Translations under genes and position numbers: made by a program
Assembly: GCA_963767295.1 (NCBI GenBank)
Contig: CAVYDI010000001.1
Location: 47,820 to 111,819 of the forward strand
DNA length: 64,000 nt
Reading direction: 5' to 3'
Origin: an uncultured Solirubrobacterales bacterium
GTDB lineage: Bacteria; Actinomycetota; Thermoleophilia; Solirubrobacterales; Solirubrobacteraceae
Part shown: positions 22,695 to 53,743 of the stretch, piece by piece
Position numbering within the stretch: position 1 is the stretch's first letter
How the letters are laid out: every line of letters starts with the position of its first letter
Notes under the pieces: generated by a model
What the model was told of the DNA's origin: nothing
Databases searched by the model: none
Seen by the model: the letters and a program-made list of their open reading frames with translations, nothing else

Positions 22695-22766
22695 CCGGGC
22701 CGATCATGATCGGCCCGGCCGGCCGGAACATGTTCCGGCCGGGGCCGGCGCACATGTGCGCCGGCC
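22695..22766. repeat. Array of three abutting perfect 24-bp palindromes (CATG-centred)
   Basis: ccgggccgatcatgatcggcccgg | ccggccggaacatgttccggccgg | ggccggcgcacatgtgcgccggcc. Confidence 0.95.
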
Positions 22767-22778
22767 AACAAAAGATGA

Positions 22779-23651
22779 TCAGGCCTTCGCCTTGGCCTTT
22801 GCCTTGCGCGCCGGCGCCTTGGCCTTGCCTGCTTTGCCGTCACGCGCGGCGGGCTTCTTCTGGTCCTCGTCGCCCTGCACGGCCGCCAGGCTCGCCTCGA
22901 GTGCGGCCATCAGGTCGGGCGCCGGCGAGGGTTCCTCGACCTCGGGCTGCACGGTGATCTCCTCGCCCGCCGCCTTGCGCTCGATCAACTCGAGTACGCG
23001 CTCGCGGTAGTCATCGTGAAACTTGGAGGGGTCGAAATCTGCCGACAGCGACTCGATCAGCTGCTCGGCCATGCGTAGCTCGCGCTCGGAGGCCTCGGCC
23101 TCCTCGACCGCATCGAGCTCGTCGAGCCTGTCTGGAGCCACGACCTCGTCGCCGAACAGCATCGTCGACAGCGTGAGCACGTCGCCCGTGGGTCGGAGCG
23201 CGCACAGCTGCTGCTTGGTGCGCAACACGATCCGGCCGATGCCCACCTTGCCCTCCTCGCGCATCGCGTCGAGCAGCAGCCGGTACGCCTTGGCGCCGCC
23301 GGTCGCGGGCGCGAGATAGTAGGAGTGGTCGAAATAGATCGGGTCGATCTCGGCAAGACTCGCGAACTCCTCGATGTCGATCGTCTTGGTCGCCTTGGGA
23401 TCGAGCGCCTCGAGCTCCTCGGATGAGATCAGGACGTAGCGGTCGGGGCTGATCTCATACCCCTTGACGATCTCGTCGTAGGGGACCTCCTCGCCGGTGG
23501 AGGGGTCGACGCGCTGCTGACGGATGCGCGTGCCTGTCTTGCTCGCGATCTGGTGAAAGCGAACGGACTTGGGCGAGGTCGCGCTGTAGAGCTTGACGGG
23601 CACATTGACCAGCCCGAAGCTGATCGCGCCTGACCATATTGCGCGGGGCAT
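22779..23651 (-). CDS. ku: Ku protein (non-homologous end joining)
   Basis: MPRAIWSGAISFGLVNVPVKLY, EIDPIYFD..YYL, DLMAALEASL and basic AK-rich tail. Confidence 0.96.
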   Translation of the reverse strand: MPRAIWSGAISFGLVNVPVKLYSATSPKSVRFHQIASKTGTRIRQQRVDPSTGEEVPYDEIVKGYEISPDRYVLISSEELEALDPKATKTIDIEEFASLAEIDPIYFDHSYYLAPATGGAKAYRLLLDAMREEGKVGIGRIVLRTKQQLCALRPTGDVLTLSTMLFGDEVVAPDRLDELDAVEEAEASERELRMAEQLIESLSADFDPSKFHDDYRERVLELIERKAAGEEITVQPEVEEPSPAPDLMAALEASLAAVQGDEDQKKPAARDGKAGKAKAPARKAKAKAKA

Positions 23652-52251: not shown

Positions 52252-52833
52252 ATGAAAGCGTGGATGTCGGGCAACGTGGCGGGGACCGGCACGTTCCGTT
52301 GCACCGAGTGTGACTACGCCCTTTCGTTGGATGCCGTCGATGAGCTGCCTCCATGTCCGAACTGCGGGGGCAAGGAGTTTGTGAGAGCGTCGCTATTCAC
52401 CACGGCGCAGGCGACGGTCGTCGAAGTGCCGGTCGGAATCGAGGATCAGGTCTGGCTCGAGGAGCTGCGCTCGAACCTGGAAGACCCCGGCCAGTACCTC
52501 GCCTACCGCTCGCCGAGCGGCGAAGTGCGCGCCTACGCGCTCGAGCGCGAGTGGACCCGCATCGGGCGCAGCCTGGCCGCCGACGTGCGCTTCGACGACC
52601 CGACCGTGTCCCGCCGGCACGCGCTCATTGTGCGCCAGCCAGATGGCCTGCGCGTACTCGATGACCGCAGCCTCAACGGCGTGTTCGTCAACGGCGAGCG
52701 GGTCGAGTGGTCGACGCTCGCCGACAACGACGAGATCGTGATCGGCCGCCACCATCTGCACTTCATCGACATCCCGGTGGTGTCTGGGATGCGCTACGCC
52801 TCGGCGGCCGAAGAAGAGCGCCAACCCGCCTAG
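52252..52833 (+). CDS. FHA-domain protein with N-terminal zinc ribbon
   Basis: C..C...CPNCG; IGR, D.TVSRRHA, SLNGVFVNG FHA motifs; AGGAG RBS. Confidence 0.92.
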   Translation: MKAWMSGNVAGTGTFRCTECDYALSLDAVDELPPCPNCGGKEFVRASLFTTAQATVVEVPVGIEDQVWLEELRSNLEDPGQYLAYRSPSGEVRAYALEREWTRIGRSLAADVRFDDPTVSRRHALIVRQPDGLRVLDDRSLNGVFVNGERVEWSTLADNDEIVIGRHHLHFIDIPVVSGMRYASAAEEERQPA

Positions 52834-52846
52834 TTCAAATATCGTC

Positions 52847-52918
52847 CCGGGCCGCGCATGCGCGGCCCGGCCCGTCGGCACATGTGCCGACGGGGGCCGG
52901 CGCACATGTGCGCCGGCC
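52847..52918. repeat. Second array of three abutting perfect 24-bp palindromes
   Basis: ccgggccgcgcatgcgcggcccgg | cccgtcggcacatgtgccgacggg | ggccggcgcacatgtgcgccggcc. Confidence 0.95.
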
Positions 52919-52948
52919 ATCCCCAATTTCTTATAGTCACCACCCTCG

Positions 52949-53743
52949 ATGGCGCACACAATCGCGGTTCTCTCTCAGAAGGGCGGCACGGGCAAGACCA
53001 CCGCGGTGCGAACGATCGCCGACGTGCTGCGACGCATCGACGTGGCCGTGCTGGCGGTCGATCTCGACCCACAGGGCAACCTCTCGGACTACTTCGACAT
53101 CGCCCCCGAGGCATCGCCAACGGTCGGCGACGTGCTGACGGGCCGCGCGGACGCGGCCGATGCCGTCCACGGCAACCTCATCCCCGCCAACCTGAATCTC
53201 GCCGAGGCGGAGCTGGCGCTCTCGGGCCGCATGGGCCGCGAGCTGTCGCTCAAGCGCGCGCTGCGCGAGGTCAAGAGCAGCTACGAGGTGGTGTTGATCG
53301 ACTGCCCACCGTCGCTCGGGCTGCTGACCGTCAACGCGCTGGTGGCCGCCGACTACGCGCTGCTCTCGGCCGAGGCGCAGTACTTCGCGCTGCAGGGGGT
53401 CGAGCAGGCGCTGCAGGTGGTCGAGCTCGCGCGCGAGAGCCTCAACCCCGAGCTCGAGTGGCTCGGCGTGCTGCTCAACATCGCCGACATGCGCACCCGC
53501 CACTCACGCGACGCCTTCGAGTCCCTGCGCAAGCACTACGGCGAGAAGCTGCTCGACACCACGATCCGGGCCTCGATCGCCTACGCCGAGTCGGCCGAGC
53601 GGGCGCTCTCGATCCTCGACTACCGCCCCGATCTCGCGGTCGACTACCTCAACGTGACCGACGAGCTGCTGCGCAGGCTGGGCATGAGCGAGGCCCGCAG
53701 CCGCCTCGGGGCCCTGGTCGGCGGTACCCGCGCGTCGGTCTAG
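52949..53743 (+). CDS. ParA/Soj family ATPase
   Basis: QKGGTGKTT deviant Walker A, DLDPQGN, IDCPPSLGLLT.NAL. Confidence 0.93.
   Translation: MAHTIAVLSQKGGTGKTTAVRTIADVLRRIDVAVLAVDLDPQGNLSDYFDIAPEASPTVGDVLTGRADAADAVHGNLIPANLNLAEAELALSGRMGRELSLKRALREVKSSYEVVLIDCPPSLGLLTVNALVAADYALLSAEAQYFALQGVEQALQVVELARESLNPELEWLGVLLNIADMRTRHSRDAFESLRKHYGEKLLDTTIRASIAYAESAERALSILDYRPDLAVDYLNVTDELLRRLGMSEARSRLGALVGGTRASV

Follow-up and report, generated by a model that had tools for sequence, protein, structure and literature searches.

A candidate RAYT-less, REP/BIME-like family of perfect CATG-centred palindromes in uncultured soil Solirubrobacterales

Termination of transcription and protection of mRNA 3′ ends have been shown for the REP elements of Escherichia coli. 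REP/BIMEs of Proteobacteria are mobilised by RAYT/TnpAREP (PMC8266576; PMC2817692), BIMEs bind gyrase, and BIME-2/gyrase sites have been proposed as the bases of nucleoid loops (PMC1475751). In E. coli and yeast, quasipalindrome template switching copies one arm of a repeat onto the other and thereby makes the repeat perfect (PMC7202029; PMC3820800), and template switching has also been found to create hairpins de novo (PMC10710096). The literature on palindromes of Solirubrobacterales or Thermoleophilia yielded nothing relevant and no description of the family treated here; this repeat element of uncultured soil Solirubrobacterales is apparently undescribed so far.

Array B, the starting point of the analysis, lies in a window of 64,000 nucleotides (the whole stretch of DNA that was analysed) from an uncultured Solirubrobacterales bacterium and consists of three 24-bp perfect palindromes, each centred on CATG, which abut without a gap at 52847-52918. 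Unit 1 (X type, CCGGGCCGCGCATGCGCGGCCCGG, 52847..52870) is found in 12 identical copies across the genome, unit 2 (Y type, CCCGTCGGCACATGTGCCGACGGG, 52871..52894) is unique in the genome and one mirrored transition away from CCCGCCGGCACATGTGCCGGCGGG, which occurs in four genome copies, and unit 3 (Z type, GGCCGGCGCACATGTGCGCCGGCC, 52895..52918) has 28 identical genome copies, with 0.00 occurrences of the exact unit expected from shuffles. An AT-rich arm borders the array on the left, from the FHA stop codon to unit 1 (ttcaaatatcgtc, 52834..52846; family consensus AAAAWTWTGTY at -12..-1), and another on the right (atccccaatttct, 52919..52931; family consensus RAM...TTATT at +1..+12). The upstream neighbour on the + strand is a gene for an FHA-domain protein of 193 aa (52252..52833; Pfam FHA, E=1.9e-16), which ends 13 nt before the array, and the downstream neighbour, also on the + strand, is a gene for a ParA/MinD-type P-loop ATPase of 264 aa (52949..53743; Pfam AAA_31 7e-45, CbiA 1e-17), which starts 30 nt after it. 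The original prediction had placed the array between the FHA gene and parA, 30 bp before the ParA start, as the Pfam matches and the gene borders at 52833 and 52949 confirm.

Among the 28 genus genomes aligned, an array is found between the FHA gene and parA only in the source genome and its closest relative (G076); in the other 26, the spacer is short, G+C-rich and devoid of an array, and both AT-rich arms are missing from these empty sites. A TATAGT box (52932..52937, + strand), located outside the element 11 nt upstream of the parA ATG, is nearly invariant just upstream of the parA-type start in 27 of the 28 genomes, array present or not, and is probably the -10 promoter hexamer of the parA-type gene, to which it would give a very short leader. 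As 26 of the 28 spacers are empty and the box is kept either way, array B with its AT-rich arms is shown, within the reach of genome alignment, to have been inserted, as a lineage-specific event, between the stop codon of the FHA gene and the putative -10 box of parA, in the common ancestor of the source genome and G076.

A palindromic sequence 30 nt before a parA start might be taken for a parS-like site of the neighbouring ParA-type system or for the operator of a dimeric regulator of parA, a reading which is highly improbable. The array bears no resemblance to the parS consensus TGTTNCACGTGAAACA, in agreement with the earlier statement that it is not a canonical parS site, and the canonical site (TGTTTCACGTGAAACA, at most two mismatches) has no match in the 91%-complete assembly, though two ParA-type genes are present. 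The 72 other copies among the 73 loci adjoin unrelated genes, the stems vary freely, which is incompatible with a dimer that reads the sequence, and every one of the 61 searched genomes of the genus has an ortholog of the ParA-type gene. Since 26 of the 28 aligned genomes carry no array upstream of the orthologous parA, the position beside this gene is incidental, and the comparison of genomes shows nothing specific that would connect array B with partition.

Array A (CCGGGCCGATCATGATCGGCCCGG / CCGGCCGGAACATGTTCCGGCCGG / GGCCGGCGCACATGTGCGCCGGCC, 22695..22766), the sister copy 30 kb away, sits between the stop of a beta-propeller gene (22687) and the convergent stop of a Ku gene (22779). Coordinates and self-complementarity confirm the predicted sharing of three 24-bp perfect palindromes by the two arrays, and the differences proposed for the single units were likewise recovered: unit 3 has the same sequence in array A, array B and G076, the only change in unit 1 is AT to CG at arm positions 9-10, repeated symmetrically on both arms (two mirrored pairs), and in unit 2 the arm positions 3, 5 and 9 are changed, each with its mirrored counterpart (three mirrored pairs). 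Between an A-type array and array B, this makes five mirrored pairs and zero unmirrored changes. As the G076 copy at the FHA-parA site has exactly the array A sequence, array B of the source genome has diverged from the A type by mirrored changes only, and G076 as the outgroup supports this direction of change. Part of the A/B difference is probably better explained by the swapping of whole unit variants than by point-by-point compensation; because unit 1 of array B has 12 copies and unit 2 is one step from a four-copy variant, the most economical path would start with the exchange of units and end with a single mirrored point change. The mirrored differences on which the two arrays had been paired are thus real, but A and B are no special pair, being two of about 73 loci genome-wide in a family with clade-wide copies. 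The Ku (NHEJ) gene (22779-23651, - strand) ends 12 nt from array A, and an identical array is found beside the orthologous neighbour in G076; the two orthologous arrays are identical at 72 of 72 positions, yet the neighbouring protein is only 66% identical.

The source assembly (3.10 Mb, 67% G+C, three contigs, 91% complete) holds about 203 units at about 73 loci, 176 of the units (87%) being perfect and 50 of the 73 loci being exact 72-bp triplets; the identity of array B as a member of a repeat family is upheld. Perfect palindromes of the genome show a spike at an arm length of 12 (174 of the 259 with an arm of at least 9), CATG forms the loop in 176 of the 215 perfect hairpins with a 10-bp stem and a 4-nt loop, and among the 8564 CATG sites the ten flanking pairs are fully complementary in 176, interrupted by one mismatch in 24 and by two in 17, the background of CATG sites setting in at no fewer than three mismatches. 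A restriction-modification (HIP1-like) origin of the CATG centre was considered and rejected, as the 8564 sites observed against about 9400 expected indicate no depletion; outside the arrays, RCATGY occurs at the Markov expectation.

Arrays in the source genome comprise one to four units, none of them in a credible coding frame. Because the three array positions have distinct consensus units (X, Y and Z), arrays are oriented though single units are not, and 27 X-Y-Z arrays are found versus 21 Z-Y-X. This orientation has only a weak link with the replication strand (p=0.09) and shows no preference for which array end faces a gene end. On each side of the array, about 12 nt are AT-rich (AAAAWTWTGTY ... 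RAMnnnnTTATT), the left and right arm consensuses being roughly mutual reverse complements, at the consensus level only; a copy-specific outer stem enclosing the array was not found, flank pairing being no better than shuffled. The best explanation of these features is an element of about 96 bp, in which two AT-rich arms of about 12 nt enclose the X-Y-Z palindromes, each of them with an invariant CATG at its centre and a G+C-rich stem of 10 bp. In four decayed units of the genome labelled G000 (C2:1208875, C3:1239908, C2:393410 and C3:75187), the centre has become CTTG, has lost the C, or has become CAAG or CACG, respectively, and the 10-bp stems remain perfect after the loss of CATG.

Compared with the REP/BIMEs of Proteobacteria (PMC8266576; PMC2817692), the family shares short G+C-rich palindromes in high copy number, an intergenic location often just past stop codons, head-to-tail arrays, species-specific master sequences, a gene-conversion-like mixing and the lack of a target-site duplication. 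REP palindromes are imperfect with a bulge, whereas the Solirubrobacterales units are perfect and loop-free; REP elements owe their polarity to a 5′ GTAG (or CGTC) tag, in place of which there is a central CATG and the flank logo ..TGTY / RAM.., and as each unit is its own reverse complement it has no orientation; array-rich genomes have no RAYT gene; and the copies, bordered by AT-rich arms, are over-dispersed and not clustered.

The pattern CATG-N20-CATG-N20-CATG occurs 53 times in the source genome; other genomes of its GTDB genus have 20, 15, 6, 5 and so on, and the pattern is essentially absent from other families of the order. When one genome of each prokaryotic species was scanned for GCACATGTGC-N14-GCACATGTGC, more than 112 loci emerged, nearly all of them in MAGs labelled as Solirubrobacterales/Solirubrobacteraceae from several independent projects and sequencing technologies, which excludes an assembly artefact. 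At these loci, an array comprises two to seven units; perfect palindromes make up 375 of the 442 units, and a constant RCATGY centre is enclosed by stems of extreme diversity. The spacing between centres is 24 bp in 254 of 328 cases, with 17, 42 and 15 cases at 23, 25 and 26 bp; together with the 87% of perfect units in the source genome, this favours the original observation over neutral palindromes, for which frequent mismatches and a variable unit length would speak. The same X/Y/Z master units, in 16-61 copies, are shared by the source genome, G076, G085 (MFD09603.bin.2.132) and G086 (PQ2_30S_bin_17), which looks like a clade-specific burst.

With respect to the evolution of the arms, the covariation was scored over collected copies. 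Standard pairs fill 99.4% of the 2100 pair cells of 70 distinct 72-nt arrays, both-sided changes occur at 29 of the 30 pairs with 529 compensatory cells, and the covariation score is 0.70 vs 0.16 in shuffles; upon sliding the partner by one to three columns as a control, pairing falls to 27-45%. The source genome contains 78 distinct unit sequences, 51 of which are perfect, and where a unit variant is two substitutions away from a commoner unit the two are mirrored in 40 cases and not mirrored in 5, with about 1.4% mirrored expected by chance. In relatives, where the flanks are 72-86% identical, orthologous arrays sum to about 20 mirrored pairs versus two unpaired changes: for example, locus L051 and C2:519079 have the same units 2-3 and differ in unit 1 by two mirrored pairs, L100 departs from its orthologous site by one mirrored pair, and L055 and L091 do so by three to four mirrored pairs per unit. 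Replacement, shift, gain or loss of whole units is seen at L043, L084, L116 and L039. Cumulatively, these comparisons show arms that evolve only in mirrored fashion and whole units that are exchanged or turned over between copies.

The question arises at which level this symmetry is maintained. Array B is predicted to fold into three hairpins with -67 kcal/mol as RNA (z -7.0) and -44.6 kcal/mol as DNA (z -8.0), and the very high stability of the RNA fold is compatible with an RNA-level element, in which stacks of 3′-UTR hairpins would terminate transcription or protect mRNA 3′ ends and selection on the RNA fold, acting on both strands between convergent genes, would keep the symmetry. In favour of this rather unlikely scenario, 42 of 50 full arrays lie at most 60 nt (mostly at most 16 nt) from a coding-like stop codon, 14 arrays lie between convergent stops, and a T-rich tail follows the X unit of array A on the minus strand. 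By crude gene calls, a preference for 3′ ends over other intergenic sites is not significant, the convergent, tandem and divergent arrays being split approximately as all intergenic regions; what can safely be said is that arrays are found between genes, where they occupy short spacers. The 16-23% of arrays without a near gene end or in divergent position, against about 24% expected for random intergenic sites, the presence of arrays at only 2-3% of genes and an over-dispersed spacing left unexplained argue against the RNA-level element, as does the lack of a U-tract after array B. A canonical intrinsic terminator at array B was rejected, no terminator-like site and no U-tract being present on either strand; in the family, A/R is the first flanking letter, and T-runs follow at a distance of 7-8 nt. 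Searched with the covariance models of Rfam 15 at the gathering score, the 64-kb window gave no match. In annotation, the arrays may mislead as operators, parS sites or terminators.

The pattern of substitutions bears more directly on the level. Of the 2100 pair cells in the 70 arrays, only about five are G-U, without strand bias, which again counts against selection on an RNA fold, and the rare mismatches, half of which are at the outermost pair, show no enrichment of G:T. Single mirrored steps are transversions in 26 of 40 cases, 15 of them being flips between C:G and G:C, which point to the DNA level because no wobble intermediate is possible, and the CATG centre is itself palindromic and invariant. 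As G-U pairs are scarce, G:T is not in excess, transversions are frequent, the centre is palindromic and arrays are not oriented towards gene ends, a constraint on both strands or a copying process would fit better than selection on one transcript. The excess of C:G to G:C flips could simply reflect the need for G+C-rich stems.

With a probability of roughly 60%, the family is best understood as a REP/BIME-like, RAYT-less DNA element, the dyad symmetry of which is kept at the DNA level by selection in combination with fold-back copying and the exchange of units. If one arm changes, the change would be reverted or copied to the other arm when the strand folds back in replication or repair, a correction that may correspond to quasipalindrome template switching, and selection for the ability of both strands to fold back, as hairpin or cruciform, would remove the remaining asymmetry. 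Template switching, an established mutational mechanism, would yield exactly the mirrored changes seen here, transversions included; it has been described from mutational hotspots of reporter genes and from the origin of new hairpins, though, and is not known for the standing upkeep of hundreds of genomic palindromes. Selection alone could produce the same mirrored pattern. Both processes named in the original prediction, selection on hairpin or cruciform structure and a copying mechanism that re-symmetrises the arms, consequently remain live, with the qualification that the swapping of unit variants explains part of the A/B difference. Certain arrays are 99-100% identical between genomes with flanking genes only 66-85% identical, as exemplified by L115, the array of which is identical to its ortholog at 71 of 72 positions between flanks of 76-84% identity; such identity despite flank divergence needs either a strong constraint at the sequence level or recent exchange, so that fold-back copying alone is insufficient.

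Against this reading, a stem of 10 bp is near the lower limit of what extrudes as a cruciform in vivo; what such extrusion classically requires is a perfect palindrome, free of a loop and flanked by AT-rich DNA. The element would act, if at all, as orientation-independent structure-forming DNA, and read-through transcripts would also carry three very stable hairpins. As a very clean natural case of dyad-preserving evolution, the family makes the long-debated part played by intrastrand template switching in the shaping of genomes directly testable.

The placement of the arrays along the chromosome is unusual as well. The 73 loci are over-dispersed, with a minimum gap of 13.0 kb, a median gap of 34.8 kb and a CV of 0.49, as compared to a CV of 0.98+-0.11 (lowest 0.67) in 5000 random draws of 73 intergenic sites, 0 of which were as regular; in the random draws, the minimum gap had a median of 0.9 kb and a largest value of 5.7 kb, and 18.8 gaps were below 13 kb vs 0 observed. 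On the source contig, the two window arrays (22695 and 52847) and two arrays outside the window form a series (C1:9220, 42030, 70514 and 100666) with distances of 32.8, 28.5 and 30.2 kb, and decayed units that were first missed by the scan sit in large gaps at typical distances, not near other arrays. The positions show no lattice and no long-range periodicity, and what remains is a local exclusion zone, the regularity of which slightly exceeds that of a 17-kb hard-core model. Short gaps are also missing in G085 (40 loci, minimum gap 15.7 kb, 0 of 20000 simulations), which is syntenic with the source genome and thus not independent for spacing, in G011 (minimum gap 17.5 kb, p~0.004) and in G087 (minimum gap 10.9 kb, p~0.014); in G023, the spacing is clumpy and not significant (about 30 loci, minimum gap 8.3 kb, deserts of 400-575 kb). 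If general, over-dispersed placement would count among the few signs, at the sequence level, of a rule that spaces elements along a bacterial chromosome.

Candidate explanations for the spacing are a topological or organisational function, target immunity of a mobilising enzyme, or selection against recombination of nearby copies. The first of these would make the arrays a chromosome-organising element, with spaced cruciforms at which a topoisomerase or a different structure-specific protein would dock and the spacing reflecting supercoil or loop domains. This rather unlikely role is favoured by the over-dispersion in the source genome and the missing short gaps in the three relatives, as well as by palindromes that satisfy the classical demand of cruciform extrusion. 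Precedent exists in the binding of gyrase by BIMEs and the loop-base proposal (PMC1475751), which likewise envisages dispersed palindromic arrays as landmarks of topology, with loops of about 50 kb comparable to the spacing of 25-45 kb here; the link with gyrase is by analogy only, and the E. coli loop proposal itself is unproven. Against such a role stand the lack of long-range periodicity, the dispensability of single arrays such as B in most relatives and the variation of array density between related genomes, which is about five-fold (only 14 loci in G089, about 30 with deserts in G023) and argues against an indispensable structural role. A tentative and further-reaching proposal, to be regarded as unlikely, combines the observations: the arrays would be more than selfish repeats, namely landmarks along the whole chromosome that obey a spacing rule (a proposed lower limit of about 11-18 kb and, in dense genomes, distances of typically 25-45 kb), and their loop-free, AT-flanked palindromes would be perfect because both strands of the DNA have to fold in cruciform extrusion. 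If true, the arrays would respond to supercoiling as docking or barrier sites of a topoisomerase or other structure-specific protein, and fold-back copying would keep them perfect.

Target immunity or the purging of nearby copies by ectopic recombination would account for the exclusion zone if the family were a selfish or fossil MITE-like element without host function, which is less than likely by a wide measure. Bacterial MITEs such as Correia, RUP and Nezha (PMC3184786) resemble the family in a length of about 100 bp, a non-coding and intergenic nature, stable folding, ends that are inverted repeats (for the AT-rich arms here at the consensus level only, with no pairing specific to the single element) and presence/absence polymorphism, which was observed at orthologous sites for the FHA-parA spacer and further filled/empty pairs. 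A MITE-like origin would also agree with a copy number that varies strongly between genomes and with the burst of near-identical X/Y/Z copies in the source genome, G076, G085 and G086. Bacterial MITEs differ from the family in that it has tandem perfect palindromes inside, no identifiable parent transposase and no target-site duplication, the longest words shared by the flanks being 4.04 vs 4.04 in shuffled pairings, a comparison that a duplication of 2-3 bp would escape. Distant empty sites have flanks too diverged for exact insertion boundaries, the FHA-parA site being the best case. The conservation of 99-100% across a flank divergence of 15-34% is unlike that of a neutral relic, and copies are absent from phages and plasmids (IMG/VR viral contigs and PLSDB, respectively).

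The search for a parent transposase covered PF01797 and PF00665. A RAYT-driven REP was rejected, as PF01797 (Y1 HUH transposase) has no match in the source genome; neither was the domain found in the array-rich G011 and G023 and 35 other genus genomes, any match being confined to 4 of 41, and control genomes were matched. Equally, a partner of the Mu/Tn7/IS21/IS3 type was rejected with no PF00665 (rve, DDE) in the array-rich source genome, G076, G011 and G085, and the lack of Y1 or rve transposases in these four genomes is a further point against a MITE-like element. Because no two arrays lie within 13 kb of each other, no gene is flanked by arrays. The preferred reading, a RAYT-less variant of REP/BIMEs, is where the unusual properties of the family, namely perfect loop-free CATG-centred palindromes, mirrored evolution with Watson-Crick pairs only and an exclusion zone between copies, are best filed, and a REP/BIME-like family without RAYT or another recognisable transposase bears on how repeats spread and persist. 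Judged by these two domains, the source genome, G076, G011 and G085 look nearly free of insertion sequences, with 30-70 copies of the palindrome element and neither Y1 (PF01797) nor rve (PF00665) domains.

In the short-read MAG G086 (PQ2_30S_bin_17), contigs C17, C34, C119 and C140 start within arrays, and the element therefore breaks short-read assemblies of the lineage; disruption of this kind affects an abundant uncultured soil lineage. A typical array is also borne by a 5.7-kb contig (L056, CAYYFD010000075.1) binned as Candidatus Peribacteria, which probably is a misbinned contig of Solirubrobacterales.
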